A stretch of DNA of 64,000 nt from a virus. The notes under the pieces are model-generated. The model did no database searches, was not told the origin of the DNA, and worked only from the letters and a program-made list of their open reading frames with translations. The position numbers and the translations under genes were made by a program. The stretch lies in the IMG/VR virus record IMGVR_UViG_3300044949_002468, positions 2,250-66,249 of that record. One strand, given 5' to 3'. The first letter of the stretch is position 1. The number at the start of each line of letters is the position of its first letter. Of this stretch, positions 11,304 through 58,889 are shown in pieces.

Positions 11304-11630
11304 TTACTCCGCCGCAACGTCCACGCCGGTCGCTTCTAGATTGAAACTGAACGTGAAACTGGTCGTGAACTCGTTGTTCGCATTGATCGCGCCGATGGTT
11401 CGCGAAACCGTCATTTTGGTCGGGCGATTTGCTGTCGCCAATCCGTTGAACACGGAATGAATGCGATGCAGCAAAGCAAAGATTACCTTGCGACTGTCGC
11501 CGCCGGCTCCGGTTGTCGCACTGGCTTCGGCGCTACTCAACTCAGGAAAAGCCGCAATCGGGATCGAAAGGGCTGTTCCGTTGGAAGAATAGCTGGTTCC
11601 GAAAAATACTGTAGGCGCCGCGTTAAACAT
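11304..11630 (-). CDS. Putative virion protein, displaced into the early region
   Basis: S/T/A-rich 108 aa; preceded by the TTGACA-N16-ATG late motif. Confidence 0.7.
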   Translation of the reverse strand: MFNAAPTVFFGTSYSSNGTALSIPIAAFPELSSAEASATTGAGGDSRKVIFALLHRIHSVFNGLATANRPTKMTVSRTIGAINANNEFTTSFTFSFNLEATGVDVAAE

Positions 11631-11655
11631 GATGCCTCACCCCTTTTGTCAACCT

Positions 11656-11859
11656 ATGGAAACCGAAACCACCCGCACCAACAGCAGCCTGCTTTGCCGC
11701 TCCAAGGTCAAAGCCTACCTGCTCGACCACGCCAAGAAAGCCCGCCACCACAAGTTCACCCGCGTCAGCGCGGAAACCCTGGACAAACTGGAGGCCGTCA
11801 TCCGCCAAGCCTGCCGCACCCATGTCGATAAGCACCCTTCCAAGGGAACCACTTTGTGA
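11656..11859 (+). CDS. Putative histone-fold protein
   Basis: LLCRSKVKAYL..(RVS)AETLDKLEAVIRQACRTHV..KGTTL fits the alpha1-L1-alpha2-L2 pattern of short prokaryotic histones. Confidence 0.6.
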   Translation: METETTRTNSSLLCRSKVKAYLLDHAKKARHHKFTRVSAETLDKLEAVIRQACRTHVDKHPSKGTTL

Positions 11860-12217
11860 TGCCGCCTCCATCGGGGCGCTGACCTTCAGCGAGTTCCGCG
11901 ACGAGTTAGAAACCAACGCGCGTTTTCGCAAACGCTGGAAAAGTCAGTGGCGGCGGGAAAAAGGGCATCCGCTCTACCCGACTCTCTTCTGCAAATACCA
12001 CCACTGCACCGGCATCGAAGTCCTGCATTGCGGGCATCCCACCGCTCTCCGCCCTTGGTATGCCTACTTGCCCGATGGAACCAGAGTGATCCACGGCAAT
12101 TTCTACGCTTTTCGCCACCTTGAAGACTGCCGAGTGGCAGCCTTCATTTTCTGGTGGAACCAACTATGCCAACAACAACAGCAGAACGCAAAGCCCCGGC
12201 CAAAGCCGCAGGCTTGA
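11822..12217 (+). CDS. Hypothetical protein (HCGHPTALRPW)
   Basis: ORF. Confidence 0.55.
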   Translation: MSISTLPREPLCDAASIGALTFSEFRDELETNARFRKRWKSQWRREKGHPLYPTLFCKYHHCTGIEVLHCGHPTALRPWYAYLPDGTRVIHGNFYAFRHLEDCRVAAFIFWWNQLCQQQQQNAKPRPKPQA

Positions 12218-12831
12218 AGAAAGTGAACCTCGGCGGCATCGCCACCAAGTCGGCCAGCAAAACCAAGACGGCTTACCCCGTCCTACCTGACCCGACCGGT
12301 GACGTTGCCAAACTCGTGGCCGACATCCGCCGCGAAACCGCCGAACTGGAAGCCCTCGAAGGCAGCCTGGACATCAAGAAAGCCGAGCTGCGGGGCACCG
12401 CGCAGGAGTATTACTTCGACCACTACTCCGGCAAACACGACATCGCCTCGTCCATCGAGGCTCACGATCCGAACGGTGAATCCGTGCTCGTGTCGTTCAC
12501 CAGCCGCTACAAAACCATCACCGACGAGGACTCGCTCATCGACACCATCGGAGAAGATCGCACCGCGCGCTTCTTCCGGCAGTCGTTCGAACTCAAGGTG
12601 GACGGAGACAAGATCCCCGAAAGCGAGGCGGAAACCCTCATCGAGGAATTGAGCGCCCTGTTCGCCCGATTCAATGCCGGTGATGCCCTGACCGCCAAAT
12701 CGGTGATCAAGCCCACGGCGGAATTCCACACCGCGCGCCACACCGCGCTGTCGGTGGACGAAAACCGCGCCGTCGACCTGATCTGCCCGATCATCGCCTC
12801 GGTCAAAACCAAGGGCCGCAAGAAAGACTGA
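12166..12831 (+). CDS. Hypothetical protein with basic N-tail and coiled coil
   Basis: 221-aa ORF; strong codon bias. Confidence 0.8.
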   Translation: MPTTTAERKAPAKAAGLKKVNLGGIATKSASKTKTAYPVLPDPTGDVAKLVADIRRETAELEALEGSLDIKKAELRGTAQEYYFDHYSGKHDIASSIEAHDPNGESVLVSFTSRYKTITDEDSLIDTIGEDRTARFFRQSFELKVDGDKIPESEAETLIEELSALFARFNAGDALTAKSVIKPTAEFHTARHTALSVDENRAVDLICPIIASVKTKGRKKD

Positions 12832-12834
12832 CCC

Positions 12835-13449
12835 ATGACCCTCCCCTCCTACCCAGCCCGCCCCATCAACGGCGGGCCGTTGGAGCGGGCGCGCCCTAAA
12901 TCGGGGCATTGGACTTACGAACCCAAGCTGAACGGCTGGCGCGCGTTAGTCCATGCCCCGACCGGGCGCATGTGGAACCGGCACGGCGAGAGGCTGTCTA
13001 TCGAAGACTGCTTCAAGCCGGTGCTGGACACGCTCGCCAAAGCCGACGTTCCCGAATGGCTCGACTGCGAAGCCTTGGAACGCCGCCTCAACCTCGGACG
13101 CGGCAGCCTCGTCGTATTCGACTACATCCCGTCCGGAACGGACCGGATCACCCCCTACGACAAGCGCAAAGCCAAACTGGAGGCCGCCATGAAAACTCTG
13201 CCCAACTGGCAGCCGTGGCAATTCGGTCCTCCGGTGCAATGCGCCGTCTACACCATAGAAGGCGTCGTGCCTTACGAGAGTGACCAGCTCGACGAACTCT
13301 ATCTTCACCTCAAATCCGAAAACCAAGCCCTTGATGCCGATCTCTACGAAGGACTCGTCGCCAAGCGCACCAACTCACCCTACCCCGTCCAACAACGCTC
13401 GTCCTCCGAAGAAACCACCTTCTGGGTCAAGCATCGCTGGGCATTCTAA
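12835..13449 (+). CDS. ATP-dependent ligase / nucleotidyltransferase domain only
   Basis: Motifs I YEPKLNGWR, III LDCE, IIIa VFD, IV EGLVAK, V WVKHR; no OB domain. Confidence 0.8.
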   Translation: MTLPSYPARPINGGPLERARPKSGHWTYEPKLNGWRALVHAPTGRMWNRHGERLSIEDCFKPVLDTLAKADVPEWLDCEALERRLNLGRGSLVVFDYIPSGTDRITPYDKRKAKLEAAMKTLPNWQPWQFGPPVQCAVYTIEGVVPYESDQLDELYLHLKSENQALDADLYEGLVAKRTNSPYPVQQRSSSEETTFWVKHRWAF

Positions 13450-13451
13450 CT

Positions 13452-13757: not shown

Positions 13758-13760
13758 CTT

Positions 13761-14629: not shown

Positions 14630-15364
14630 TGCCGTGCCGCCGCGCTTAAATCCCATCTTCTTGGCGATGCGCGTGTAGCTCTTGAACAATTTTCCGGTCT
14701 GCGTCACAGCACCCTTGTTGCCGCTATCGGCCATGGCATGAGGATGGAAATCCACCGACACCTTGTTCTTCTTGAAGTGCTTCATCAACGATCTGATGTT
14801 TCTGGCGCCTTTGGGTTTACCGATCATGTCATTGTCGGAATCTAGCAAGTCCCACACTGCATTACGCGGACCGTATTTGGTAACAATCGCACTTGTCTGA
14901 CCTCCACGCCCGACCACTTCAATCCGGCGCGGATTTGCATAAGCGGTTCCATCCGTGTCTGCGGTTCGACTGCGATACAACTTGGACTGAGGTGACATGA
15001 CGCCCCTGTAAATTCTCGTGTAGTTTGCGTCCCGCGACGATGGGCGGGGTATCATTTGAAATCCTTGCGGTGCAGGATTAACAGTGCGCGTTGAAACGCT
15101 GGGTGAAGCGGGGCTGACCCGATCACCTTTGCCAACGATCCAGCTGTCCTCCAGCCGAGACGATGAACTTCCGGTAGCAAGGATGCGCGCATCACGATCG
15201 CGCATTTTGCCAATTAACCGGCGATACCGCTCCGCTTTCGGACCCGAAGCATCGCCTTTTAGTTGCGTATTCGGCGCGCGCTCGGATCCAAAGTTGCCCA
15301 TGTAGCGCGCGATACCAAACTCCAACGCGGCAATTCTGCTGGCAACAAGATCGAGCAATCTCAC
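14606..15364 (-). CDS. Basic protein with N-terminal ASRIAALEF propeptide-like motif (putative head-packaged cargo)
   Basis: TTGACA-N13-GTG late motif; antisense within the early region. Confidence 0.65.
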   Translation of the reverse strand: MRLLDLVASRIAALEFGIARYMGNFGSERAPNTQLKGDASGPKAERYRRLIGKMRDRDARILATGSSSSRLEDSWIVGKGDRVSPASPSVSTRTVNPAPQGFQMIPRPSSRDANYTRIYRGVMSPQSKLYRSRTADTDGTAYANPRRIEVVGRGGQTSAIVTKYGPRNAVWDLLDSDNDMIGKPKGARNIRSLMKHFKKNKVSVDFHPHAMADSGNKGAVTQTGKLFKSYTRIAKKMGFKRGGTALLPRFVP

Positions 15365-15387
15365 CACGATTTAGCCCTGTCAATTTT

Positions 15388-16346: not shown

Positions 16347-16389
16347 CTTTGGCTAACGCCGCGCGAGTGCGCGGACTGTTACCATAGCG

Positions 16390-16424: not shown

Positions 16425-16467
16425 ACGCCGATTTGCTGGTTATCCGCTTTTTTTACACCATTGCGGG

Positions 16468-18288: not shown

Positions 18289-18904
18289 ACACCCGCTGCC
18301 CGTCAGCAATCGCCCGCTCGATATCCTGACGGATGATCTCCGCCGCCGTTATGTCATCCGCCGGATTGACCTTTGGCGCCAAAATCGCCGGAAGCCCGCG
18401 CAACCGCGCAAGCAAAGCCCCCCAGCCCTTCCCAAACATCTCACGCGCCTCATCGAAGGGTATCAGCACCCGCGCCTTCTCCTTGATCTCCAACACCATT
18501 TTCTCCGAGGCCATTCGGCCCTCTTTGGCGCGATTGTAGGTCTGAATTAAAAGTGGCAGCTTCTCCACCGAATCCGCCGCAATCGCCGCCTCCACCAGAT
18601 ACTTCGCCTGCTCCTCAATCTCGATCGACGCCTTCAGCGAAGCCTCCATCTCTGTCAAACTCCGCCTTTTCGGCAACCGCACTCGCGGTGCTGCCTCACC
18701 TTCTTCCACTGTCTCAACCCTCTTGCTCCGAAAACCCACGCCGCCGCGCGCATGGCTCAACCTCCACTCCCGCGCCGCCTCCAAAGAATCAACAGGACAC
18801 CCCTTCTGATTCTTCATGCGGCTCACATAGGCCACACTGGTCCCCCAGTCCGCCGCAATCTGAGCCAAAGTCACCTTCCCGCTTTCTGATACTTCCTTCT
18901 CCAT
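18269..18904 (-). CDS. terS: Terminase small subunit
   Basis: N-terminal HTH (TLAQIAADWGTSVAYVSRMK..GCP); Nu1-like C-terminus; directly upstream of terL. Confidence 0.8.
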   Translation of the reverse strand: MEKEVSESGKVTLAQIAADWGTSVAYVSRMKNQKGCPVDSLEAAREWRLSHARGGVGFRSKRVETVEEGEAAPRVRLPKRRSLTEMEASLKASIEIEEQAKYLVEAAIAADSVEKLPLLIQTYNRAKEGRMASEKMVLEIKEKARVLIPFDEAREMFGKGWGALLARLRGLPAILAPKVNPADDITAAEIIRQDIERAIADGQRVYEQVLA

Positions 18905-18966
18905 AACACTACCCCCACTTTCAACCTTAACTTGTCAACCAGAACTCAAGTCACAGGTTAATGTAA

Positions 18967-27648: not shown

Positions 27649-27813
27649 CTAACGCTGCTTGGTGAACACATTGATCAAGCCGACGAGGGACAGCCCCACG
27701 GCAATGATCGCATTGGCCTGCATGGGATCCAGACTCACGCCAGCGGCGGTCAGGAGCATCAGAATGCCTCGCCAAGTCGAATCTTCACGCAACCGGTCGA
27801 GTATGTAGTTCAT
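27649..27813 (-). CDS. Holin
   Basis: RLREDSTWRG plus two TM segments; TTGACA-N14-ATG. Confidence 0.75.
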   Translation of the reverse strand: MNYILDRLREDSTWRGILMLLTAAGVSLDPMQANAIIAVGLSLVGLINVFTKQR

Positions 27814-27844
27814 ACCCACACCGGCACTGTCAATCCGGGGAGCT

Positions 27845-29059: not shown

Positions 29060-29392
29060 TTAGGAGGCGGCCAGTGTTGCCACCGGGGGGATGTTAAGCG
29101 CACCACCCTGCAATGGCGCGGCGTAGCCCGCAGGACTCAGCGCCTTGAAGTCATAAACAAACACCCCCGCCTCCGCCGTGTCATTCTCGTCGATATGGAA
29201 TGAAACACTGGTGCCCATGGCCGGGGTAGCTATTTTCTGAAAAATAGCGGCGGCATCGAGGTCGTTCAGTGATCTTTTGGCTGTTAGCCAGAACTTCCAC
29301 CCCGACACAGCAAGCGGCGCTCCTCCCGCAGTAAAATGCGCCTCAAATAAAAAATCACTCCGGCGCGGGATCGTTAAGTCTCTTTGTATCAT
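29060..29392 (-). CDS. BppU-N-like tail/baseplate adaptor protein
   Basis: beta-rich; LTAKRS..D.AA, GVFVYD; GGAGG RBS. Confidence 0.65.
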   Translation of the reverse strand: MIQRDLTIPRRSDFLFEAHFTAGGAPLAVSGWKFWLTAKRSLNDLDAAAIFQKIATPAMGTSVSFHIDENDTAEAGVFVYDFKALSPAGYAAPLQGGALNIPPVATLAAS

Positions 29393-29422
29393 GTGCCTCC
29401 CCCAACTTGTTTGCAGTGTCAA

Positions 29423-30652: not shown

Positions 30653-31344
30653 AAAGGTCGTGTTTCGATCGTGTAGACCCCTCCTTCAACAACTGGAACG
30701 AGCCGCACCCACGCTACTCCGTCGGCTGACAACTCTAGACTTCCATCAGATCCAAGCCTCGCTCTTGAGGTCGCAAACTTCATAGAGTCAAAAGCCTGCT
30801 TGGTGCGCAAGGGGGTCATCCATGTCGTATTGTTTGTCCCATTTTGAGATTGAGCCTGTGTGGCCTTGAGATCGACTTCAGCGACAGGAAGAATGGTATT
30901 AGGGCGGATGATATCATTCGCCACGATCACGTTGAACGTCGCGCTCGTTATCACGGAGTGATCCTGCTCTACGCTGACTTCGGCGATTAGAGCCACACTC
31001 TCAGGCTCCTCAGCAAACAGTGCATTTAGTTCGACCGTGTTAAGATTCAGATCAAAAACGTAAACCCTGCCCGAGCCGAAGCCCGATACAGTCCAATCGC
31101 TAGCTACGGCGACATAACCCGCCGCGGCAACAATACCCGCAGGGCCAGGGCGGATCCCCAGACTCCTTTTCAAAGCCAACATTCCTTGGGCCGTCTCCGG
31201 TAATTCAATGTTGATACCATCGACCCTAAAGACGGCCTCAACTCGCAATCGGTCTGCGCGCTTGACCCGCCGCGCCGTGGCGCCGCCAAGCCCCCCGTTC
31301 CAATCCGTCACCGCGCCGGTATCCAAGTCGATGGCCAGTTTCAC
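30649..31344 (-). CDS. Tail adaptor/fibre protein
   Basis: GTNNTTWMTPLRTKQA fibre motif; TTGACA-N14-GTG. Confidence 0.75.
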   Translation of the reverse strand: MKLAIDLDTGAVTDWNGGLGGATARRVKRADRLRVEAVFRVDGINIELPETAQGMLALKRSLGIRPGPAGIVAAAGYVAVASDWTVSGFGSGRVYVFDLNLNTVELNALFAEEPESVALIAEVSVEQDHSVITSATFNVIVANDIIRPNTILPVAEVDLKATQAQSQNGTNNTTWMTPLRTKQAFDSMKFATSRARLGSDGSLELSADGVAWVRLVPVVEGGVYTIETRPL

Positions 31345-31391
31345 CAGACCAAGCTACCTGTCAATTTAGGTATTCGGTTCGAGCCAGACTG

Positions 31392-37667: not shown

Positions 37668-37697
37668 TGAACACCGCGCCGCAGTCAACTTTTGAGG

Positions 37698-43900: not shown

Positions 43901-44366
43901 CCCCGTCGCCCCCGCTCTTCAATGCCCCCGCCAACCCACCCATCGCCGCCGCCACCGCATCGACCGGTGCACCAGTCGCCGCTGCCACATCCTGCACCTG
44001 CTTCAAAGCAGCAGTGGAATCAAAGGCTCCCTTGGAGAGCACCTGCAAGTTCAGTGCCGCTTTGCCCAAGGCTTCGAAGGCAAAGGGGGAGCGCGCCGCC
44101 TCAGCGGTTAATTCTGCCACCTTCTTGCGCGCCGCATCGGCGCTGCCCATGATGGTTTTGAACAGCGAGGTCAGGCGATTCGCCTCGCCACTGGCCTGCA
44201 ATGCCGCCTGCATTTTCTCCGCATTGAGTGCGGCCCCACCCATGGCCTTGACAAAAGCCAGCGCACCCGCGCCCAACGCGGCCATCGGGCCTACAGTCTC
44301 GTTGAGGATGGTCTTGAGGGTCTTGGCGGCGTTGGCCATGCCGCTGGGTGGTGGATTGACCGCCAT
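40911..44366 (-). CDS. Tape measure protein
   Basis: 1151 aa, Ala/Gln-rich and helical; FKTIMGSADAA..SPFAF motif; TM segments. Confidence 0.9.
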   Translation of the reverse strand: MAVNPPPSGMANAAKTLKTILNETVGPMAALGAGALAFVKAMGGAALNAEKMQAALQASGEANRLTSLFKTIMGSADAARKKVAELTAEAARSPFAFEALGKAALNLQVLSKGAFDSTAALKQVQDVAAATGAPVDAVAAAMGGLAGALKSGGDGVAAAANQLVEMGAISGQTARKIADLAQSGAPASEAMRLLEADTQKAKGAAQELSNTIAGLQQQLANQQTASDAEIGKMFEEGEKAGLRAAASFQKFTSAVQEAASGPWASIMAGVQGAKEAVANFFASVAQLGAVQAVFKGLGAVSVAVLTLLAASLLTASKAIIGFVMQTRVAQAAMAGLIGTTRAWASLMTGVSGALTIVGTGLALLAFKAIEARQKVSELNKELQRSRSESGAVAGSLAGQARGVQTPEDLDAAKNAANEAVANAQKNLDDAKGRLTEAQNAGPGFGRDELVGLAQQGVDQAQGGLDQIQGFAQQILSINQAALALDAKRTEEARERAKLEREIAEDARLAAAQMGAGSKEALQSIKNESAQRREDAKVASGQISKGNRAIAEVDTKLPAVGSSDEEKRLDAAIREKEASLALARQNPDGQQFVGGPVAAGTPSFSREEVATMEGEKRALEEQRTRAAQAAQEGSLRTAFSQLQEVEATAPSNDFGVTQTNAQIAQRQLLNDASRQATEVLANPTSEEDGGPTRDQKAAAEALLRAVSELTTSIGGAEQLSGASIQQLEFRRDEGMEKANVPRAIQADESNAKLLQGQAVAEAEAQFSMQRLRNETMIMQLKKTGAQVAQEELQAQLKAAQALEQAQKVAAAPVKEGNAAAFDEAQERVKNAEVRAEDYLEEQPNLTANEAQRDLEQAQEATSTAARGLNLKTEDPEVIQNELRPKVDKVLAGTATEDEQRIVEVALEMTGLEDVEALDAALIDLQSKANQEWRLNFRADALKELEAAKEAAANVAPGNQEQAQQAQAAVRAAEVQLAAVGGGGRSADEIQAEQVAAQESQAKVVSDMNRQAQIQALRVQENFGTDRRGAKEAADRLEDEALKEDRAREIGKTMSNPNLSPEENAANAKELAGYQVDMERAMSNINEMKQPRMSEMASVGGSAGWGGLVQDTASEIKKLQEIAEQQRQAMDRIYNLNNEMAQWARGQAAALSD

Positions 44367-44382
44367 AACAGGGTAAATCCAG

Positions 44383-45192
44383 TCAACGCGCGCCCTGTGT
44401 CACCAGCCGGTCAAGCGTTGCCTCCCAATACCTGGCTTCAGCATGTGCCAAAGCCTCGGCGTGGCCCTTGTCTTCGTCGCGCGCAATCTCCAAGGCCATA
44501 TTGGCAATCTTTTCTTTGCGGTGCTTGATCACGTGTTCCATGCGTTGATCGTCCAGCGGTGTCCACAGATTGACCTTGGCTCCCTCGACTTTGGCCATGG
44601 CCACATTGAGCCAGACCAGCTCGCCCACCGGCATATTCCACGCCAAAGATGGCGGGTGCCCGTGCCGACAGAGCAAGGCAATTTGTTCCATCGCATCATC
44701 GAGATCGCGGTCCAACTGCCGCTCTCCGGAAAATGTCTCACACTCCTTGATTTTGCCCCTGATTTGCTGCTGTTCTTCACCCTGCAGGAAAGGCAATAGG
44801 CGCCTGTAGGCATCGCCCAGTTTTCGGTAGGTGCTTCCGATCCCCTCCCATGTTTTTGGGGGAGCATTGTATTCCCGCAGGTATTCCGCGAATTTCTGCA
44901 ACTCTTTCTGCAGCGAGTAGCGGCCGAAGCGCACCCACCAGAACAAGTGCCACCACGAGCTGTAACGTGTCTTCAGCGCTGGCCGGTTCGGATATTGCGT
45001 GCAGCAGACTTTGGCTGCCAGCCACACATCCCACAGCGTCGCGCCGCCCAAGAGAACGCGCGAATTCCAGCGCTCCAGCTGCAGCTTATGCCAGAAAGAG
45101 AACGGCTGCAGGCGATACCCAAGAACTCGGTGCCCTCCGTCGTGGAAAAGGCTTTCCGCTAAACGCTCATCAACAACGTATTGGTGATCCAC
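44383..45192 (-). CDS. Tail assembly chaperone-like protein
   Basis: Position between tube genes and TMP; RVLG..L.PFS.WH and AWNMP. Confidence 0.6.
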   Translation of the reverse strand: MDHQYVVDERLAESLFHDGGHRVLGYRLQPFSFWHKLQLERWNSRVLLGGATLWDVWLAAKVCCTQYPNRPALKTRYSSWWHLFWWVRFGRYSLQKELQKFAEYLREYNAPPKTWEGIGSTYRKLGDAYRRLLPFLQGEEQQQIRGKIKECETFSGERQLDRDLDDAMEQIALLCRHGHPPSLAWNMPVGELVWLNVAMAKVEGAKVNLWTPLDDQRMEHVIKHRKEKIANMALEIARDEDKGHAEALAHAEARYWEATLDRLVTQGAR

Positions 45193-45540: not shown

Positions 45541-45828
45541 TTAGAAGCTAAACTGCAGTGTCTCGGTCGACTGCTTGGCCGCATCTTCGTTGGAAAATTC
45601 AACGCGCGTGCGGATAGTGGCATTGGATCCAGCGGACAGGTCCTCCAGCGCATTGCCCAGCGTGGTTGTCGTGGTGCTGGTTTCGGGCCCGGAATAAATG
45701 ACATCTTGCAAAATTCCGCCCTCGCCCGTCACCTCCACCTCGGAGGAATACCGCTTGTTGATCGTCTCGCGGATGCCGTCGCTTAAGAAATCAAGACTCT
45801 CGCCGATTCTTTGAAGTGCCTGTGCCAT
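45541..45828 (-). CDS. Putative tail tube-like paralog
   Basis: SNED motif; TTGACA-N15-ATG. Confidence 0.55.
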   Translation of the reverse strand: MAQALQRIGESLDFLSDGIRETINKRYSSEVEVTGEGGILQDVIYSGPETSTTTTTLGNALEDLSAGSNATIRTRVEFSNEDAAKQSTETLQFSF

Positions 45829-45840
45829 AATACGTGCGCT

Positions 45841-46281
45841 TCATGTCAACCGGCGCCGAAAATACAACGCGTCCTTCCCGCCCCACCGCTCCGCCGGACT
45901 ATACAGCTTAAAACCTGCCCGAATCAGGCTGTTCGCACTGGCCAGATTGCCCGCCACCACATACGTCACCACCTCCTTCAGCCCCAACCGCCGCGCCATC
46001 CGCACCCGCGCATGAACCAGCCGCCGTTGCCGACCCTGCCCACGCTGACCTGCCACTACCCCAGCCCGCGACAAATACCCCAGACCCCGATTGTAATCCG
46101 CTCCACAAACCTTCATGCCCGCAAAGGCCACCGGCTTGCCCTTCTCCTCATCAATCCACCAATACGCACCCTCCGGTTTCACCCGCCAATCCCCCGGAAA
46201 ACATTGTGCATCCAGCTCCACAATCAGATCATGCACCCAAGCGGCGCACTCCTCCGGCGTTGCTACCAATCGCAGGCCCAT
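45841..46281 (-). CDS. GNAT acetyltransferase
   Basis: RAGV...RGQGRQRRL; N.AS.NSLIRAGF. Confidence 0.85.
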   Translation of the reverse strand: MGLRLVATPEECAAWVHDLIVELDAQCFPGDWRVKPEGAYWWIDEEKGKPVAFAGMKVCGADYNRGLGYLSRAGVVAGQRGQGRQRRLVHARVRMARRLGLKEVVTYVVAGNLASANSLIRAGFKLYSPAERWGGKDALYFRRRLT

Positions 46282-46296
46282 GCGGGCCGCGTCCTG

Positions 46297-46719
46297 TCAA
46301 GCCAGCCGGATGTCCTTCTTGCGAAACGCCGACATGCTGCACTCCTTACGCCCCGTGCTCTCCCACTCAATCACCATCCGGTCGCCCTTGACCGACACGA
46401 TCTTGCCTTTGGTCCCCCGCTTGCGCGACACCACCGGCATCCCCGCTTTAGGCTCCATCGCCTTTGGCGCCACCTTCGGCGCGTTCGCTGCCATCTGGCT
46501 CACCTTCCGGTAGCCCGTGCGGCGAACAAAGCGCCCGTCCGACCACACCTTGAAATCCCGGAACTCGATGGTTCCCGCCTTGATCCCAGGATTCAGCACC
46601 TCGCGCACCCGCTCCGGCGAGCATTCCACCTGCTCCGCGATTTCCTCCCGCGTGCTCCAACCCTTCGGCCAGGCATAAGCCGAAACATTCATCCGGTTTA
46701 CTTCGGCTTTCCAGTTCAT
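46297..46719 (-). CDS. HTH plus SH3-like hypothetical protein
   Basis: PKGWSTREEIAEQVECS; coupled to the phosphoesterase. Confidence 0.65.
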   Translation of the reverse strand: MNWKAEVNRMNVSAYAWPKGWSTREEIAEQVECSPERVREVLNPGIKAGTIEFRDFKVWSDGRFVRRTGYRKVSQMAANAPKVAPKAMEPKAGMPVVSRKRGTKGKIVSVKGDRMVIEWESTGRKECSMSAFRKKDIRLA

Positions 46720-47720
46720 GCTAAAACAATCGGCGCCGTGATCGTGCGCCCTCTCTTCGAGTCGAAGAGAAAATATGTCTGCTGCGGCGGTTCATAGGAC
46801 GCCTTGATGCTGATCGCATACGCATTGTAGCCGATCAGCGACCCATTGCTCACCCACTTCGGATTCTGCTGTTGCGTGTGCCAGTGCCCGAAACAATCCA
46901 GATCCGCCACCCGCGCCTTGTTCCACGAGGCAATCGCCTTCTCCGTCGGGATGGTCAACCCGCCGATCCCGCCCTGATACTTCAACCCGTCCCCGTGGTG
47001 AAATCGCAGCGTCTTGCCGAAAAGATCCACGTAATTGAAATACGAATCCGACACCTGCCACTCCACCCCGTCCTGCACGCGCTGCGACATCACCTTGTAG
47101 AGCAACCACTCGTAGCTGTTGCGAAACCCCGTGGCATGCCTCGGCTTTTTCGTTGTTCGCCCATGGTTGCCGTAGCAACACGGAATCAAGACCCGCGCAA
47201 AATTCTGCCGCAATGAGGCAATCCCCCGCGACACCCGCTCCATCACCCACAAAATTGTCTCCGTCGGACTCAGCGCATTTGTCTCCGCCAGTTCCTCGTG
47301 GATATACCCACTCATCAAATCGCCACCCAAAAAAAGCACGCATGTGTCGATCTCCGCGCCGTTTCGCTCGATCTCCGTCAGCCGCACCACACTGTTGAAA
47401 AACTTCTCGATCCGGGCCTCCGCCACGCGCAGGTCGAAATGATTCAGCCCATTGGTCGAATCCGCCGTCACTTGCTCTTCCACGTGCCAATCACTCGCCA
47501 AAGCCACCGCCACCGCCTCGCACTTCGCCGTCTTCTTCACCGCCAACGGCTTCTGCGAGGGCTTCGCCGCATTCAACGCATCGACCACCCCCAGCTGCTC
47601 CTCCAATTCCTTGATCCGCTCCAGCCCGGCCGTAATCTGCCGCTTGTAATCCGACACCACACTGCGATGCGCGTGCTCCGCGCTCTCCCGCGCAATCGTT
47701 CCCCAGTTCTCCTTGGGCAT
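46716..47720 (-). CDS. Calcineurin-like metallophosphoesterase
   Basis: SDWH, GGD, GNHGR, HHGD, GHWH. Confidence 0.9.
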   Translation of the reverse strand: MPKENWGTIARESAEHAHRSVVSDYKRQITAGLERIKELEEQLGVVDALNAAKPSQKPLAVKKTAKCEAVAVALASDWHVEEQVTADSTNGLNHFDLRVAEARIEKFFNSVVRLTEIERNGAEIDTCVLFLGGDLMSGYIHEELAETNALSPTETILWVMERVSRGIASLRQNFARVLIPCCYGNHGRTTKKPRHATGFRNSYEWLLYKVMSQRVQDGVEWQVSDSYFNYVDLFGKTLRFHHGDGLKYQGGIGGLTIPTEKAIASWNKARVADLDCFGHWHTQQQNPKWVSNGSLIGYNAYAISIKASYEPPQQTYFLFDSKRGRTITAPIVLA

Positions 47721-47838
47721 GACCCTCTTACAGTGTCAACCCCCCGCGCCCCCCTGACATAAAGAAGTTCCCAGATAAAGCGCACAGCACTTTGACATCT
47801 GAACTTTCCACTCTGAAATGCGCGGCGCGAGCCGTGCC

Positions 47839-48263: not shown

Positions 48264-48632
48264 CTACCACCCCGCGCTGCTGTCAGCCCTAGATCCCAAA
48301 TTCAAAGTCACTGTCGCCCCCTGCCATGTCAGTCCCGTGATCCGGTAAGTCACCGCCTTCCACTCCACCAACCATCCGTCCCTCACCTCGGCGCCGCCGA
48401 AACCCAACCCGATCGCCTCCTCCTTCAACGGCTCCGCCTCGCACTCCAGGACAAAATTCACCTCCTCCACCCGACCACCCATGCGGTAATCCCCGCCGAT
48501 GTCGCGCGGCATCTCGATCGCCCGCACCTCGCGCGAGTGTGCCTCTTGGCCCGCTTTCCATACCCGCGCCTTCGCTGCACTCAAAATGGCAAACGCCGCC
48601 TCATCCGCCGCCGCCATCGCCTCATCGAACAT
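48264..48632 (-). CDS. Putative head-tail joining protein
   Basis: Position after MCP; TYRIT motif; start set by TTGACG-N13-ATG. Confidence 0.6.
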   Translation of the reverse strand: MFDEAMAAADEAAFAILSAAKARVWKAGQEAHSREVRAIEMPRDIGGDYRMGGRVEEVNFVLECEAEPLKEEAIGLGFGGAEVRDGWLVEWKAVTYRITGLTWQGATVTLNLGSRADSSAGW

Positions 48633-48663
48633 ATCGCCCACCCCTCGTCAACTTCTCAATCTC

Positions 48664-48700
48664 AAAACAAAACCCCCGGCAGCTTTCGCCACCGGGGGTC
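48664..48700 (-). terminator. Intrinsic terminator after the major capsid gene
   Basis: ACCCCCGGTGGC-GAAA-GCTGCCGGGGGT-TTTGTTTT. Confidence 0.85.
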
Positions 48701-48724
48701 CGTATGCAGGAGGATTGGAAATCC

Positions 48725-50100: not shown

Positions 50101-51390
50101 TTAGGCGTCAGCGAGTTTCACGATGCCGCGAGCGGCGTTGTGCTCGGCGTAAGCGCGCGGGTTGTCCTTCATCGCAAAACGGATCGCGTTCGCACGGGCC
50201 ACCGTCTTGCTCTCCCCCTTTCCCTCCAGCTCGGTCGCTTTCGCGCTAACCAGCCGGTCAAATTCAGTCACCTTCTCGTCGCCTTCCGGCGCGTTGAACA
50301 TGCGCAGGCTCTCCGTCCCCGGAGTTGCCGCCTTGATGCCCTGCAGGCGGATCGTGCGCTGCAAAGCGTCATTCTGCGCGGTCAGCGCGGTCATCTTCGC
50401 TTCGAGAACGTCGAAAGCGTGCATGACCTCGGCCTTCTCCGCGTCCTCGGCTTTCTGACCGAGTTGGCTTTCCAGTTCGACCACGCGCTTGCGCAGTTCG
50501 CTGAAAGCACCCTCGCCGCTCGCGGCACCGGCCGGAACAGCAGCAGCCTCACCGGCTTCACCAGCTTCTTGACCTTCGCCTTCGACGGCGCCTTCACCGG
50601 CTTCCGCTTCGACCGCCGCATTGTAAGCTTCGATCGCCTCGTTGACCTCATCGCGGGTGATGCCCTGTTCGGCCAATTCCGCATCGTTCATCGCAGCAAG
50701 CTCTTGCAGCTCCTCGGCGGTGATCGGGGTGTTAGCCTCGATCAAAGCATCGATCTCGGCCTGACGATTGGAGACATCGGTAACGGCCTCCTTGAGTTCA
50801 TTCAGCGCGGCGAGCACATCGGTGATCGTCGGCTCCTGCTGGTTCTGCTGGTTCTTATCCATAGAATTTTCATCGCGCGGTGTGTCAACCACCCGCCCAT
50901 CCGAAAACAAACCCGCCGGATTCGCCGCTGGCATCGCCACGCAATCCACGGCCAAAAGCTCTTCGCACCGCGCCGCCTTCTTCCCGGTCGGCAGCTTCTC
51001 GCCCTCCGGAGGACCGGCAAACGCCGCCGAAAGCCCGAAACAATCCGGCATCCTCACCGCGCGCTCCATCAGCGCATCGAATTCCTCGTGGCTCTTGAGC
51101 AAATGCCAATCCGCCACCACCTTGTCGCCCTCGCGACGGAATCCCTCCAAGTATCCGCAAATCGACTGCAAAGCCTGCGGATCTTTGTGGTTGAGTTTGA
51201 CCTGCACCCTCCCCTTGGAGTTCCCGCAAGTGACGATCTGCTCCAGCGTCCGGTCATCCACCTCCAGGTCATGACCGCGCGCGGTCACCCCGCCGGTGAT
51301 CACCGCTGCGCCACGAATGATCCCTGCCTCACGATCCACGCGGCCCGAAATGCCGCCCGCCGCAAATGAAAAAACTGCCGAGTTGTCCAT
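50101..51390 (-). CDS. Prohead protease with C-terminal scaffold
   Basis: ARGH, KLNH, FGLS, DCVAMPAANPAGLFS protease domain followed by an acidic coiled coil. Confidence 0.85.
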   Translation of the reverse strand: MDNSAVFSFAAGGISGRVDREAGIIRGAAVITGGVTARGHDLEVDDRTLEQIVTCGNSKGRVQVKLNHKDPQALQSICGYLEGFRREGDKVVADWHLLKSHEEFDALMERAVRMPDCFGLSAAFAGPPEGEKLPTGKKAARCEELLAVDCVAMPAANPAGLFSDGRVVDTPRDENSMDKNQQNQQEPTITDVLAALNELKEAVTDVSNRQAEIDALIEANTPITAEELQELAAMNDAELAEQGITRDEVNEAIEAYNAAVEAEAGEGAVEGEGQEAGEAGEAAAVPAGAASGEGAFSELRKRVVELESQLGQKAEDAEKAEVMHAFDVLEAKMTALTAQNDALQRTIRLQGIKAATPGTESLRMFNAPEGDEKVTEFDRLVSAKATELEGKGESKTVARANAIRFAMKDNPRAYAEHNAARGIVKLADA

Positions 51391-51420
51391 ACAACCTCGG
51401 CACGGTTGTCAAAGTCAGCT

Positions 51421-51552: not shown

Positions 51553-51565
51553 AGTCCTCCTTTCA

Positions 51566-51886: not shown

Positions 51887-51893
51887 GGTCAAA

Positions 51894-52667: not shown

Positions 52668-53329
52668 TAGAATTTGCCTTTGCCAAAGACCGCACGAAAG
52701 ACCGCCCTTTGAAATTCCGGAGTGATCTTCGCCGCTTTTTTGCCTGCTTTCTCTGCGTTCTGGTTCTTCAAATGCAGAGCCTTGTAGTCGTTTAATTTCC
52801 GAGCGTCGGCCTTTTGAACCATCGCCAACTCAACAACCCGCGCTTTGATTTCCTGCGAGAACTTCAGTTTCCCGCCCGTGGCTACCGCAAGCCCCTTGCC
52901 CAGCGCCTTGCGGAAACGCCCGAAAAGTCCGGTGGTTCCAGCCTTGTTGCCAATCGCGCCCGGCTTGGTCGCGCGCCACGAACGCTGACCGGAAAGGAAA
53001 CCATCGTTACCAGCGTCAATCGCCCTGCCACCTATCGCGCGTCCCGACTCCATCAAGTCACGCCCCGCGCTGCGATAAGCCGACCCGCGCACTGCCATAC
53101 CGCTGCCGCCACCGCCGTAGCGATTCATGATTGCGCGATCCGCGACCAATCCGCCACCGACCGCACCGGCAGTCGCCGCTGCGCCACCCACCGTTTTGAA
53201 ATCGCCCACCGAGTTCGCCTCGGTGCCGTCCTCGCGATACCACTTGCCATCCGGCCCGCGCATCACGGCAAAAAGCTTCGCATCCACCTTGGCCTCCAAA
53301 GCCACCAGTTTGCTCTTGATCTCGTTCAT
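52667..53329 (-). CDS. Basic Gly-rich modular protein (putative internal head protein)
   Basis: RGPDGKW, Gly-zipper, FSQEIKARVVEL; TTGACT-N14-ATG. Confidence 0.75.
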   Translation of the reverse strand: MNEIKSKLVALEAKVDAKLFAVMRGPDGKWYREDGTEANSVGDFKTVGGAAATAGAVGGGLVADRAIMNRYGGGGSGMAVRGSAYRSAGRDLMESGRAIGGRAIDAGNDGFLSGQRSWRATKPGAIGNKAGTTGLFGRFRKALGKGLAVATGGKLKFSQEIKARVVELAMVQKADARKLNDYKALHLKNQNAEKAGKKAAKITPEFQRAVFRAVFGKGKF

Positions 53330-53351
53330 AAATGTTTTGGTTCAGTCAATT

Positions 53352-56300: not shown

Positions 56301-56390
56301 ATGGGCAATTTGGCCGGTCAAAGGAATGCCCGCCTCCCTGCCAATCGGATCCTGCCGCCTCTGTTTCGCCAAGTTCTCGCGCCGACTCAT
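53352..56390 (-). CDS. 1012-aa basic modular polyprotein (Gly-zipper modules plus a DUF6321-like module)
   Basis: Seven linker motifs; SGGLN..RAKYNRE.GSNLK..RRASFCARM..ALKRWNC; start set by TTGACA-N14-ATG. Confidence 0.8.
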   Translation of the reverse strand: MSRRENLAKQRRQDPIGREAGIPLTGQIAHDRYVIENRQKDIAKRDSNILRAGIAGTAAGAVLGRGRLPLKARLAAGALAGAGSVIGVRAVTHKTGRDVYGARQPWAARSEAAPAVIGAGAAGYGAYRILRKKLLKMSDARFEFSKKEKRQMNPYVMAGLSGAASGAALGILPLLRRGVGVKTALRTAAGGAAAGGAIVGGGSLLGSAILGDPDKKEGAAFTKRAAVGGAIVGGTLGVAGGLVARRVPVVRKQVGKLAKEWRPAQWIKKAGPIKAAALGGVAGGAYGAATGADEGQQVDSIRNIRKDLKRMHGLSSRIKDFKFEMSKDWRDLRRESRSEAAKDVLSGSGVLAAGAGVGAGVGYAGWRAGKAMNQVGAVAGDARKATRGARVAGARITRASRWIKRQLTTFPTFRKLRAFDASGQLVELEKPFHGYNKKRHAKSGGLNDSFRAKYNREHGSNLKRPVTKDPSKLKPGSKAAKRRASFCARMGGMQGPTSKDGKLTPKGAALKRWNCSAKEELIEMNDKTYRPGSTAEMRSMKMTPAIKEVLKKENARGAMAQKLRSLMKVLPFEARYEFQTMAPMAPMNPVYDERERLKQQLLVTGAVATPVAGVGYAGWRSLRKSAKAMQTEEARMKLGQQLRAERRASMSVGGKVNNARFGPKGSIEREPLPIRKSMQPDTLERNQATNKAMAIGKRYESEIKSRYRAGSKMKMVHSRGERKAMRATLAMLRTKYKFARKGAVHQFAIYARDEETGRAAGFYDYVQGRSLTRKNPVTGRVEAAPITTGAFISAARRKAEEYNRTRKRGMGLVRDVSEVSQGKKTKKREWEKSWFQNKLQTAAGAAALLGAGVVYRKGGLRSAPNWAKSFRRGTDATIARAQNLRATAEDRLGKIMGLSARLKNSVRTFDMYQDYYGTQGWDLRDARGNSARVFSPTAKKRNRRPAEWYEKKEGERKILGGLALAGTIAGTAGGVLVGRKIWKPKLQVVTPKKMTFKKGHWLPDYLAPDPKK

Positions 56391-56449
56391 CGCCACCACC
56401 GACCTGTCAATTCGGCCCTCTGAAATCTGCAATTTCAAATCTGAAATCC

Positions 56450-56623
56450 TCACGGCTGCCCCCTCCATTGATGAATAAACATCTGCATGCTGTTGCGTAG
56501 CTGCTGCAGATCGCGCCGCGCGATGGCCAGATCCATCGTCAGCTTGTCGCAGCGGTCCACGAGGGACTGCAACTCACGCATCGCCGCCGCTTCCGCTTCC
56601 GTTGTCTGGATTTCTGCTTGCAT
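56450..56623 (-). CDS. Small coiled-coil protein
   Basis: ORF overlapping the end of the portal gene. Confidence 0.4.
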   Translation of the reverse strand: MQAEIQTTEAEAAAMRELQSLVDRCDKLTMDLAIARRDLQQLRNSMQMFIHQWRGQP

Positions 56624-58325
56624 CAGATTGTTGCGGACGGCTTTCCGGCACCAGCGCCTCCGCCTTGGCGCGCGGCACCCCGTAAACGTAGACCAGACTT
56701 TGGATCGCGCTCTCGCGCTCCAGCTTGCCCTCGGCATGGGCCGTGAGCACATCAATCAACTGTGCAGCGGTCTTTTCGCCCACCTTGCCGACCAAGCCCT
56801 TAACCGGAGGCGGCGGCATTTCCGGCGGCATATTGATCGCCGCCAACATCTGGGTCGCGTTCTGCATGGACGGCACGATCAGTTCGATCGGCACCACGGA
56901 TTCCGCCGCGACTTCCTGCAACTGCTTGACCTCGCGGGCCAGCGTGCGCGCCACTTCCAGATTGCTCGATCCGTCGATCTCCTCGATCACCTTGCCGCGC
57001 GGGATAATGCCGTTCTGCAACAAAAGCATCTGCTCCTGCACATAGTTGCCGGTATCGCCGGTCAGGCGCGCCCCGAAATTCCAACTGCCCGATTTCCACA
57101 GCGGATGCGGCGTGATCTTGCCCATGGCAATGGCCCGCTCCAGCACCAGATCGCGGACTTTGTTCAAAACCTTGTCCACGAGCAACTGCTGGTATTGCTG
57201 GATCGTCCGCATCGCCTGCATCACCTCGATCCGCGCCGTCACACCGCCCAAAAGCGCCATGTTGTAGACAAAGCCGAACGGCAAATTCAGCCCCAAGGCC
57301 ATCTCGCGGATCAGGATCTCGACAAACTGCATCAGATTCCCGGACGGACGGCCCGTGCTGCCGGGGAAGGTGATTTCCTCACCCTCTTGAAGCCTTTTGA
57401 TCATGCCTGCCTGCACCTCGAAAGCATTCGGCCCGCCCGCGCCCGTGCCGCTCTTGGTCATCCAATCCAACCCGCTGCCGGTCGGGGCGCTGTCCTTGCG
57501 GCGGATGAATCCGGCAAAGGCGGCAGCAAATTTCATCGCCAATTTTTCAAAGCCAAACAGTTCATGGATGTCCCGCGCATGGGGCAAAAGCGGCGACAGC
57601 CAGCTATCCCCGTGGTATTGGTCCGCCCGCGTCGGACGGAACAAATGCAGGAACAGTTCCGGCGGCACGATCCCCGCACCCAGCCCCATGTCGAAAGTCT
57701 CCTTGGTGTATTGCGCCATCCGCGAACGGCGGTAAATCTCGTAGCCGGTCACGCGGCCCACTTGGTCGATATGGATGCCGTTGATGCAATACTCGTCGGC
57801 CTTCACTGTATCCGGCCCGCCGATCCGGTCGGCCTCGATCGGTTGCAGGCGGATCTCGTCGCCATCCGGCACGATGATCCACCCGTATTCCCCATCCCGC
57901 GCCGTGGCTCGGAACCCCAACTGCACCAACTCGGCCAGCCGGTAACGCCCCGTCACATCCGCCCGCCCGCACCAATCATGGAAATAGTCCTGGTATTCTT
58001 GGTCGATGTCCGAATCTCCCGTCCTCGACTGATATGTAATCGCCCCGCAAGTGTATTGGGTCAGCTTTTCCAGCACCCCGCGGATGAAGCAAAACTTCTC
58101 CTCCATGTCCCGCGCTTCCCAGATGCGGTTGATCCGCTGACGCTGCTTGCGCTGGGTTTCGGGCGAACCCTGCCGCGTCTTGCCGCCGCTATTCCCGCGC
58201 TGCTCGCGGTTCCAATCCCCCCGCTCGAACTCCTGCAGCCAGTGTTTTGACACCAGCCGCCGCAACCCCGCTTCGGGGGCGACAGCGGCAATCGCCTTGT
58301 CCAGAAATGTGATCTTTTGCTCCAT
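56574..58325 (-). CDS. Portal protein (lambda family)
   Basis: DKAIAAVAP..G.RR, RDGE, LQPIEADRI, GI.ID..GR..GY, HLFRP.R.DQ.HG. Confidence 0.92.
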   Translation of the reverse strand: MEQKITFLDKAIAAVAPEAGLRRLVSKHWLQEFERGDWNREQRGNSGGKTRQGSPETQRKQRQRINRIWEARDMEEKFCFIRGVLEKLTQYTCGAITYQSRTGDSDIDQEYQDYFHDWCGRADVTGRYRLAELVQLGFRATARDGEYGWIIVPDGDEIRLQPIEADRIGGPDTVKADEYCINGIHIDQVGRVTGYEIYRRSRMAQYTKETFDMGLGAGIVPPELFLHLFRPTRADQYHGDSWLSPLLPHARDIHELFGFEKLAMKFAAAFAGFIRRKDSAPTGSGLDWMTKSGTGAGGPNAFEVQAGMIKRLQEGEEITFPGSTGRPSGNLMQFVEILIREMALGLNLPFGFVYNMALLGGVTARIEVMQAMRTIQQYQQLLVDKVLNKVRDLVLERAIAMGKITPHPLWKSGSWNFGARLTGDTGNYVQEQMLLLQNGIIPRGKVIEEIDGSSNLEVARTLAREVKQLQEVAAESVVPIELIVPSMQNATQMLAAINMPPEMPPPPVKGLVGKVGEKTAAQLIDVLTAHAEGKLERESAIQSLVYVYGVPRAKAEALVPESRPQQSDASRNPDNGSGSGGDA

Positions 58326-58328
58326 GAA

Positions 58329-58574
58329 TCAGAAGGTGATCCGCGAGAAATCCGCCACCGCCGTGTAGTCTTCCGTGCTCGCATTGCGCGTCCGCAGCAC
58401 CCGATTCGCCGCCTGCAGCCGGTCCCGCACCTCCCGCAAATCCTTCGTGTAGCTCTTGCTCCCGATCTGTTGCGACGAAAGCGGAGTCGCCAGCTTCTTC
58501 AGTTGCTCGATCTCAGCCGCCAGTTCCGCACCGGAGTAAGTCGCATAGATTTCCACCCAGTCGCTCGCCGCCAT
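58329..58574 (-). CDS. gpW-like head completion protein
   Basis: SQQIGSKSYT; directly before the portal gene. Confidence 0.65.
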   Translation of the reverse strand: MAASDWVEIYATYSGAELAAEIEQLKKLATPLSSQQIGSKSYTKDLREVRDRLQAANRVLRTRNASTEDYTAVADFSRITF

Positions 58575-58589
58575 GCCCCTCCTTGTCTG

Positions 58590-58889
58590 TCAATTCGGAC
58601 AATCTGACCGAAAAACCTGCCACATCCAGAATGCCTGTCTGAAAGATGCAGGAAGCTCTTGAATTTCTGCTCCCTGCTTTACGAATTTCTTAACGATGGC
58701 GGCGAACGATCGCACGCTCGTGCGCTCCCATGTCCACTTGGTATTGTCCCATACATAGATATCAATCACGCAAATGCGGCGGTCCAGATGGTCTACGGTG
58801 CTCGTAGCCCGCTCGTGTAAAAGATACCTTTTGTCGCCGACTACCGCAGCGCAGCAACGCGGACTTGCACCTTCGATGGCGTATCTCAT
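58590..58889 (-). CDS. Hypothetical protein
   Basis: Coupled ORF with lower GC. Confidence 0.55.
   Translation of the reverse strand: MRYAIEGASPRCCAAVVGDKRYLLHERATSTVDHLDRRICVIDIYVWDNTKWTWERTSVRSFAAIVKKFVKQGAEIQELPASFRQAFWMWQVFRSDCPN

Follow-up and report, generated by a model that had tools for sequence, protein, structure and literature searches.

A TTGAC(A/T/G) box 13–16 nt before late gene starts, a probable phage-group-specific signal and candidate promoter in an uncultured virus

Introduction

The late promoters of phage T4 (TATAAATA) are A+T-rich elements at −10 which are read by gp55 together with gp33 and the gp45 clamp, and in phage T7 the gene 10 'epsilon' enhancer, a short U-rich word which precedes the capsid-gene AUG by about 16 nt, is said to act beyond the strong Shine-Dalgarno (SD) sequence it accompanies and has been proposed to pair with 16S rRNA. 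The closest described case to the one considered here is that of the Thermus phage Lalka27a, for which the available part of the report lists 16 putative late promoters and mostly leaderless transcripts. The promoters have a −10 word specific to the phage, TAGGGT, which stands six bp ahead of the start site, and a conserved C at −25; transcription begins at the first base, A or G, of the start codon, the specificity of the host polymerase is proposed to be shifted by a phage factor, and phiYS40 is cited alongside for dense late promoters and leaderless transcripts (bioRxiv 10.64898/2026.04.20.719267). Leaderless start sites make up 10% of those mapped in Akkermansia (Verrucomicrobia), according to the part of that study available (PMC4782308), and the cluster K mycobacteriophages are described, in the accessible part of a further report, as carrying 13-bp Start-Associated Sequences (GGGATAGGAGCCC) which lie 3–7 bp from the start, contain the SD core and precede non-structural genes (PMC3203893). 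Here we describe a box, R-R-TTGAC(A/T/G), which stands 13–16 nt before the start codons of late genes in 64,000 of the 66,249 bases of the uncultured virus record IMGVR_UViG_3300044949_002468 (this stretch is referred to as the window), a virus which probably infects a member of the Verrucomicrobiota.

Our literature search turned up no account of TTGACA boxes placed in this way relative to start codons, most subscription journals lying outside that search. TTGACA is the consensus −35 hexamer of sigma70 promoters and is read on DNA by helix-turn-helix domains, and an earlier note made from the letters of this DNA had proposed that the box is either a non-canonical late promoter giving leaderless or very short-leader messages or a signal for SD-independent translation. 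We confirm the feature, which is conserved and confined to one phage group, and we favour the first proposal: the box would be a DNA-level promoter of this group which produces leaderless or near-leaderless messages with the host RNA polymerase and a putative phage factor, a reading to which we assign a probability of about 0.5. What stands of the earlier proposal is that the box is not a normal sigma70 element and is specific to the phage group, and the indirect evidence leans towards a promoter; the argument that it substitutes for an SD is not supported, and our searches put no name to the phage factor that was called for.

Results

Enrichment and geometry of the box

TTGACD (D being A, G or T) is scarce in the window overall, with 50 matches against 86.8 expected from shuffles, and 13 of the 16 copies of TTGACA on the minus strand are ahead of a start codon (10 at tight and three at loose spacing) compared with none of the nine on the plus strand. 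All 1024 5-mers were ranked by their occurrence 14–17 nt before an ATG or GTG which begins an open reading frame (ORF) of 60 aa or more and lies no further than 40 codons past the preceding stop. TTGAC came first, with a count of 13 of 51 on the minus strand (base rate 0.0195, binomial P 1.4e-11) and 0/40 on the plus strand. The claim that this word is tied to position and strand was therefore borne out by the count.

The logo built from 54 sites reads R-R-TTGAC-(A>T>G), so that 6–8 bp are conserved, with no other conservation between −30 and +13. A histogram of the spacers of 691 distinct TTGACD sites on the strand coding for the large terminase (TerL) and the major capsid protein has 49 sites at 13 nt, 27 at 14 nt, 26 at 15 nt and 28 at 16 nt, and its edges are abrupt (none at 11 nt, one at 12 nt, three at 17 nt and two at 18 nt); at 5–7 nt from the start the box is not above background. 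The spacers are G-rich and their sequence is not conserved. Because of the 13–16 nt spacing, the lack of a TAnnnT and these unconserved spacers, the box cannot be taken for a normal −35, for a −10 or for an SD, and it fits no described promoter or ribosome-binding site. We note that within minus-strand genes the sense copies of TTGACA, TTGACG and TTGACT number 4, 5 and 1 against 8.0, 15.5 and 5.4 expected from synonymous-codon shuffles, and that TTGACC is not depleted (9 against 9.9).

Box sites in the window

The 14 tight sites and three looser cases listed in the earlier note were recovered at the same coordinates and spacers, all 14 tight sites being on the minus strand with TTGACA (the exact sigma70 −35 consensus) at ten, TTGACT at three and TTGACG at one. 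The sites below are all on the minus strand and are given as the interval from box to start codon, with the coordinate of the start codon.

TTGACA stands 13 nt before the ATG (58574) of an 81-aa gene adjoining the portal gene on its upstream side (58572..58593), where a TGA within the box closes the ORF that lies upstream (58590-58889), and both box and ATG are retained in five related loci with unrelated spacers. A 1012-aa head-region protein (DUF6321) has TTGACA 14 nt before its ATG (56390; 56388..56410), and a 220-aa gene without an SD has TTGACT 14 nt before its ATG (53329; 53327..53349); the orthologues of the latter in L016, L013, L004 and L008 have spacers of 19–21 nt, with an SD-like core in L016 (AAGGAG) and L008 (AGGAG). 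Upstream of the capsid gene is a 429-aa gene with TTGACA 16 nt before its ATG (51390; 51388..51412), and the box is retained ahead of its homologues in G017 and G018, whose TerL proteins are 39–43% identical; from position alone, our guess is that this gene encodes a protease or scaffold. The same ORF contains the first of the loose sites, TTGACA 20 nt before an in-frame internal ATG (50862; 50860..50888), and at the matching place G005 has TTGACA, 22 nt and ATG, with a stop codon and a T-rich run before that box, which points to a shorter product, nested or separate, encoded ahead of the capsid gene.

The first gene past the capsid terminator has TTGACG 13 nt before its ATG (48632; 48630..48651), and a 334-aa gene (phrog_284) follows with TTGACA at 13 nt (ATG 47720; 47718..47739). 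At the next site (TTGACA, 13 nt, ATG 46281; 46279..46300) the stop of the upstream gene is again a TGA within the box, and at the one after (TTGACA, 15 nt, ATG 45828; 45826..45849), which is without an SD, the box lies within the last codons of the upstream gene; the 45828 orthologues in L004 and L005 have a 26-nt spacer containing GAGGAG. A 1151-aa gene, a putative tape measure by size and position and with no family match, has TTGACT 14 nt before its ATG (44366; 44364..44386), a 922-aa tail-region gene has TTGACT 15 nt before a GTG (37667; 37665..37688) and a 231-aa gene has TTGACA 14 nt before a GTG (31344; 31342..31364). The second loose site is TTGACA, a 24-nt spacer containing GGGGGAGG, and ATG (29392; 29390..29422). 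A 54-aa hydrophobic protein encoded next to the CHAP lysin gene, on its upstream side, which we guess to be a holin, has TTGACA at 14 nt (ATG 27813; 27811..27833), and its homologue in G018 is 74% identical and also boxed, with a spacer of 13 nt. Ahead of terS is the extended box ctggTTGACAagtta, 28 nt containing GGGGG, and ATG (18904; 18902..18938), and this extended box is also found ahead of terS in relatives, where the spacers are 18–28 nt and most leaders have an SD.

The remaining two sites belong to isolated minus-strand genes divergent from plus-strand neighbours. One has TTGACA 13 nt before a GTG (15364; 15362..15383), and the gap to the plus-strand gene at 15388 is only 23 bp and is filled by the box. 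The other has TTGACA 16 nt before an ATG (11630; 11628..11652), with a gap of 25 bp, also filled by the box, to the plus-strand gene at 11656; the site and both flanking genes are retained in G005. No other promoter-like sequence was seen in either gap.

Two of the longest-ORF starts, 37688 and 29422, turned out to be the TTG of the box itself, and the corrections to ORF starts proposed earlier are supported. The start at 56390 must lie downstream of the box because the orthologues in L004 and L005 have a stop codon directly upstream of it and, more generally, the ATG past the box is taken as the real start since it is kept in relatives, as are the residues that follow it, and the first codons after it change in a coding pattern.

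Conservation in relatives and absence from the host

Our near-relative set comprised 14 viral loci and two loci from metagenome-assembled genomes (MAGs) with capsid proteins 56–98% identical. In these the box occurs at the same orthologous gene starts with unrelated spacers, and across the 16 loci start-associated TTGACD on the capsid-gene strand came to 79/231. A TerL profile search of the viral collection returned 466 relatives, of which 80 were retained and 77 loci counted: TTGACD was found 13–16 nt before the start at 111/508 on the TerL strand compared with 10/336 on the other, and for the 54 loci with TerL 38–46% identical the figures were 94/389 and 5/259. In 120 unrelated phage loci it was found before the start at 20/1972. 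The complete relative G005 (68.5 kb, with 127-bp terminal repeats) has eleven box sites on one strand and one on the other.

In the candidate Verrucomicrobiota host MAG G002, TTGAC ranked 47th of the 1024 5-mers (6/461; 400 kb) and the spacer histogram was flat, and over 5.3 Mb there were 43 cases of TTGACA-N13-16-ATG against 56 in the reversed control, with 5/43 on a 29-kb phage contig; in G001 there were 25, five of them on the phage contig, against four. The box is thus kept in related phages and its layout is not used by the candidate host G002, as would be expected of the phage signal proposed in the earlier note.

Host-type promoter elements

A −35-like hexamer (TTGACN or a near variant) followed after 16–18 nt by TAnnnT was found only twice in the whole record and at neither place at a box site. 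Promoter-like sites with TAnnnT 16–18 bp past the −35 were absent from 40000-59900, where 4.8 were expected, and from 1-12000, and in 10000-29900 no sigma70-like site was seen except around 26562-26652. As separate observations, a host-type promoter-like sequence, TTGGCA-16-TATGAT, lies ahead of the replication block (26562-26589, minus strand), and another, TTGACT-16-TACGTT, at the right end (63413-63440, plus strand) is directed into the plus-strand block; few such sequences occur in the record.

These counts bear on whether the boxes could be ordinary host-type −35 elements, in which case transcription would begin about 30 nt downstream, within the ORFs, and the true start codons would lie deeper inside them. 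The hexamer matches the consensus exactly, and the −35 and −10 signals of Akkermansia are at their usual places in the part of that study available (PMC4782308). Even so, no TAnnnT follows at 16–18 bp, the ATG past the box is conserved with the codons after it varying in a coding pattern, and there is no second peak of start codons some 29–32 nt past the box, so that this explanation, which the sequence already contradicts, is hard to credit. The earlier view that the box is not a normal sigma70 −35 and that coding begins at the ATG past it is upheld.

Signs of where transcripts begin

The usual start-site context is a pyrimidine at −1 and a purine at +1, in the part of the Akkermansia study available (PMC4782308). 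Position −1 is occupied by a pyrimidine at 94 of 145 box starts (65%) compared with 72 of 188 SD-led controls (38%, P 1.8e-6), and the proportion is highest at 13-nt spacers (43/53) and falls to 14/33 at 16 nt. The stretch +1..+41 of box genes is also looser than an internal window by 2.70 kcal/mol (P 2.8e-9); for −13..+28 the difference is 0.97 kcal/mol compared with 2.79 for the SD-led controls (P 0.01 for the difference between the gene sets). Together, the −1 pyrimidine and the low-structure zone from +1 favour 5' ends at the AUG and not at the box.

Downstream of the major capsid gene a strong intrinsic terminator (48670..48701, minus strand; 14-pair stem and T run, −35.2 kcal/mol, z −4.1) is followed after 18 nt by the box of the 48632 site, and this order of T run then box is kept in L016, L017 and G005. 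At the 51390 site a hairpin (51367..51406, minus strand) pairs the spacer with codons 2–5, with the AUG in the loop and a U-rich run after it. It is present in 7/9 orthologues with stems of 8–13 bp, differing sequences and z-scores of −2.1 to −5.7; in six of the near relatives (L002, L004, L006, L009, L014 and L015) the arms co-vary, several having the U run after them, and in L016 and L017 it is missing. Judged from the predicted fold, it looks like a terminator or a translation lock around the AUG; a transcript initiated at the AUG would escape the hairpin and readthrough RNA would not. Such AUG-in-loop hairpins are clear only at this site, the 14 window sites having a mean z of −0.16. A very stable long hairpin was also observed at 51440-51500 (minus strand), within the 175 nt of intergenic sequence that precede the box at 51412 (a 148-nt stretch, −62.3 kcal/mol, z −3.4), with no U run following.

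The same data speak to the suggestion that UUGACD is an RNA processing site, cut by a phage or host endoribonuclease to give defined short 5' ends. The depletion of TTGACD in late genes on the sense strand only, with TTGACC spared, the intergenic location of the boxes and the apparent avoidance of the hexamer with or without a following start codon would all suit it. We nevertheless think it very improbable: no candidate nuclease was found, the two isolated divergent genes would still require a promoter, and the −1 pyrimidine and structure-free zone from +1 indicate ends at the AUG and not at the box. We know of no precedent for a processing site with this word.

As a check of the promoter reading, tRNA genes were sought with ARAGORN in the window, 17 related loci and about 110 loci. 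The window gave one doubtful tRNA-Ser(ACT) (61595-61673, minus strand) inside a glycosyltransferase ORF, which is probably a false positive, the 17 related loci gave none, and the set of about 110 gave one doubtful call. A scan of the viral collection for TTGACA, 8–38 nt and a common tRNA D-arm returned at least 120 stretches, and since none of these had more than one box-to-start site, they lie outside the phage group. Among low-G+C phage contigs, a word (t)GTTCTTTGACAT(a/g)(t/c)TGG was seen 11–19 nt upstream of predicted tRNA 5' ends in eleven unrelated, A+T-rich loci, and this is a separate instance of TTGACA near an RNA 5' end.

Shine-Dalgarno sequences and the possibility of a translation signal

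The earlier note had described the box genes as poorer in SD sequences than other late genes, and this did not hold: a GGAG, GAGG or AGGA core at −16..−4 occurs in 6/14 box genes and 9/38 other minus-strand genes. SD use is low in the window overall and the SD peak of the candidate host is weak. The upstream regions of about 35 plus-strand genes in the block at 1-16346 are C/A-rich and have neither SD nor box, and since box genes have SD cores as often as the others and these plus-strand genes do without either, the idea that the box is a simple substitute for a missing SD is not supported. TTGACA also has no complementarity to the 16S rRNA 3' end (CCUCC; the 16S of the candidate host ends GGAUCACCUCCUUU), and at 13–16 nt it lies outside the SD range of about 5–10 nt.

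A more general version, in which UUGACA 13–16 nt before the AUG acts in RNA to recruit or position the ribosome, directly or through a phage protein, and replaces the SD, we consider unlikely. It would account for the fixed distance to the start codon, which is kept even where the box overlaps the end of the upstream gene (the 46300, 45849 and 44386 cluster), and for in-gene depletion confined to the sense strand. The T7 epsilon enhancer likewise lies at a comparable distance from its AUG, and UGUCA occurs in the 16S of the candidate host near 447, in what resembles a hairpin loop, although about 1.5 such 5-mers are expected by chance. The longer UGUCAA is not in that 16S, SD-like cores are equally frequent in box genes, and the plus-strand genes just mentioned, like most other minus-strand genes, have neither SD nor box and yet must be translated. 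Nor is the region upstream of the AUG free of structure as it is in SD-led genes, the 51390 AUG being in the loop of a stable stem, and the layout is not used by host genes. The isolated genes at 15364 and 11630 would need another promoter and none is seen. Finally, the terS boxes stand 18–28 nt away, mostly with an SD leader, which means that the box needs no fixed distance to the ATG, and the 53329 and 45828 orthologues with spacers of 19–26 nt have SD-like cores in L016, L008, L004 and L005.

Candidate factors and the possibility of a regulator site

Most of the early proteins have no Pfam family. The only sigma-region-4-like protein found is an 88-aa stand-alone GerE/LuxR-type helix-turn-helix protein (10052..10318, plus strand; PF00196, 35.2 bits) with PDB matches to EL222 and GerE, and copies that are 69–72% identical are present in G004, G005, G006 and G009. 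We rejected it as a general reader of the box as no family match was found in ten more distant box-bearing records, which include two 100% complete genomes, G011 and G017. The predicted structure of the neighbouring 168-aa gene product was unusable (pLDDT, the predicted local distance difference test score, of 45), and PDB sequence searches with the 1012-aa and 408-aa proteins gave no match. A BLAST comparison of all window ORFs with G005, G011, G017 and G018 found no non-structural gene common to all four. Among the few non-structural genes common to the window, G005, G011 and G017 is one for a 204-aa protein (12835-13449, plus strand), which has a weak match below the cut-off to an ATP-dependent DNA ligase adenylation domain (22.9 bits). 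The 67-aa basic protein encoded divergently from the boxed 11630 gene (11656-11859, plus strand) is conserved to an unusual degree, being 89% identical in G005 and 48% in G018, groups in unnamed virus and Verrucomicrobiota clusters and is a candidate regulator with no link to the box.

The boxes might instead be DNA sites for a regulator in short intergenic gaps and not promoters themselves, acting as operators or roadblocks in the manner of the stoperators of cluster A mycobacteriophages. The stoperator consensus contains the complement of TTGACA, and the boxes are short, asymmetric, intergenic and in a single orientation in a phage which encodes a GerE/LuxR-type helix-turn-helix protein. Against this, the information content of the box, about 13 bits, is low for recognition by a specific protein, a roadblock would not have to keep to a sharp 13–16 nt window before the ATG, and the GerE family is matched in none of the ten box-bearing relatives. 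Integrase and repressor genes were not seen in Pfam scans, and G005 has direct terminal repeats. We regard this alternative as improbable. Stoperators themselves are 13-bp transcription-regulating repeats, in the available part of the report that describes them (PMC3203893).

Gene layout and probable host

The window has a G+C content of 58.5%, the minus strand being 34% G and 24% C, so that the composition of early messages is very different from that of late ones. The minus strand encodes the portal (56574-58325), the major capsid protein (48725-49705) and TerL (16468-18309), along with a D5-type helicase, a DnaG-type primase, the CHAP lysin and a C1q-type fibre. A cluster at 58886-62559, also on the minus strand and ahead of the structural block, encodes a DUF5672 protein, an FkbM methyltransferase and a family 9 glycosyltransferase (heptosyltransferase-like); it may be an accessory gene set modifying the cell envelope, and the box is absent from it. 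The plus strand carries a block of small early-type genes at 1-16346, including RadC and an AAA ATPase. No Rfam families were found in the window.

No close cultured relatives were found by megablast or by searching a phage collection with the capsid protein, and TerL is at most 25–30% identical to those of cultured phages. The host is probably a member of the Verrucomicrobiota, because relatives of the capsid protein are encoded on single contigs in two MAGs, one assigned to an uncultured Chthoniobacter and the other to the Verrucomicrobiota, with the reservation that binning can misplace contigs.

Discussion

We suggest that the box would drive structural, lysis and packaging genes via the host RNA polymerase, probably aided by a phage factor, with transcription starting about 13–16 bp past the box, on the start codon or within 1–3 nt of it; since the start would fall on or next to the start codon, most messages would have no leader or almost none. 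In the case of terS and 29392 the start codon would be further downstream, behind a leader with an SD. A four-base start window is what is expected from the start-site flexibility of bacterial RNA polymerase, and SD-to-ATG spacings are looser. The indirect signs that we count in favour of this reading are the −1 pyrimidine, the low structure from +1, the place of the box past the capsid terminator and in the two divergent gaps, the longer terS leaders with an SD, the 51390 hairpin, the in-gene depletion of sense copies and the lack of the layout in the candidate host. The box, its sharp spacing, its conservation, its confinement to the phage group and the missing −10 are observations; action at the DNA level, the position of the transcription start and the identity of the reading protein are what we infer here.

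A number of points weigh against a promoter of this kind. Pfam scans of the 70 window ORFs found no phage RNA polymerase and no sigma factor, Sigma70_r2 was not found in five phage records, and the GerE-type protein fails as a general reader. To our knowledge, an element centred near −17 matches no known holoenzyme geometry, the logos anchored on the box and on the ATG have no −10-like, A+T-rich or UP element, and the region that would melt carries no mark, the spacers being G-rich and free. Some relatives have a well-placed SD inside a 13–14 nt spacer (G017, TTGACAtAGGAGGtaatttt-ATG), which a leaderless message would lose, and in terS leaders the SD starts as little as 8 nt past the box, so that if box transcripts use this SD then their start site must be less than 13 nt from the box. 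The depletion inside genes is also confined to the sense strand: antisense copies number 13 against 19.4 expected (not significant) and 46 against 50.7 in relatives, where the sense copies of TTGACA itself are not depleted (19 against 13.7, from crude gene calls). The boxes at 46300, 45849 and 44386 fall within a 2-kb stretch of one tight gene run, where two of the three overlap the last codons of the gene before them, and three per 2 kb is dense for promoters. It should be noted too that the sites counted across relatives share phylogeny and are not independent, and our P values are therefore too optimistic.

A fuller version of the proposal, which we put forward tentatively, is of a single −35-type hexamer with its centre about 17 bp ahead of the start site, with no −10 and a G+C-rich melt region of free sequence, from which the host polymerase would start on the start codon. 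Its reader would be either a putative phage protein of small size or sigma region 4 in a shifted position, and the arrangement would be used across a large, probably Verrucomicrobiota-infecting clade (the 466 TerL relatives). A promoter of this geometry is not known to have been described before, while the kind itself, a phage-specific late promoter, is known. If the box is a promoter, bacterial RNA polymerase would be aimed by a −35-type word alone, at a position read by no known holoenzyme, and this would imply a new specificity factor or a re-arrangement of sigma and would bear on how phages re-programme host transcription in little-studied phyla. If it acts in RNA instead, the signal would be a new one, either for initiation without an SD or for processing, and equally unusual. 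In practical terms the box provides a rule by which gene starts and operon boundaries can be called across a large uncultured phage group, a possible marker for assigning contigs to this group, and potentially compact promoter or leaderless modules for Verrucomicrobiota such as Akkermansia.

Comparison with known systems

With the sigma70 promoter (−35 TTGACA, 17 bp, −10 TATAAT) the box shares its hexamer, strand-specificity and location upstream of genes, but there is no −10, a normal start 29–31 nt past the −35 would lie inside the ORF, and candidate host genes are without the box layout. The T4 late promoters are alike in being a single short element without a partner before many late genes; they are A+T-rich and at −10, neither of which is true of the box, and are read through phage-encoded factors, whereas Pfam scans and the Sigma70_r2 search found no gp55-, gp33- or clamp-like genes here. 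The T7 epsilon enhancer is at a similar distance from the start codon, but the 16S of the candidate host contains no complete match to the complement of UUGACA. Stoperators are about 13 bp long, bound by a repressor and found in temperate phage, whereas 6–8 bp are conserved here and Pfam scans found no repressor or integrase.

The Start-Associated Sequences, as the available part of their description presents them, resemble the box in being asymmetric, in one orientation, near start codons, phage-group-specific and absent from the host, with function unproven. They differ in word, distance and gene class, the box being 6–8 bp long, 13–16 nt from the start, without an SD core and associated with structural, lysis and packaging genes, and it does not belong among them. 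In comparison with the Lalka27a promoters, again as far as the available part of that report goes, the word of that phage is a −10, whereas the box in the window is −35-like, 13–16 bp upstream and not A+T-rich, with the −10 region unconserved. What the two have in common is a short phage-specific word placed before many late genes, and in the present case this word is one left unused by the candidate host G002.

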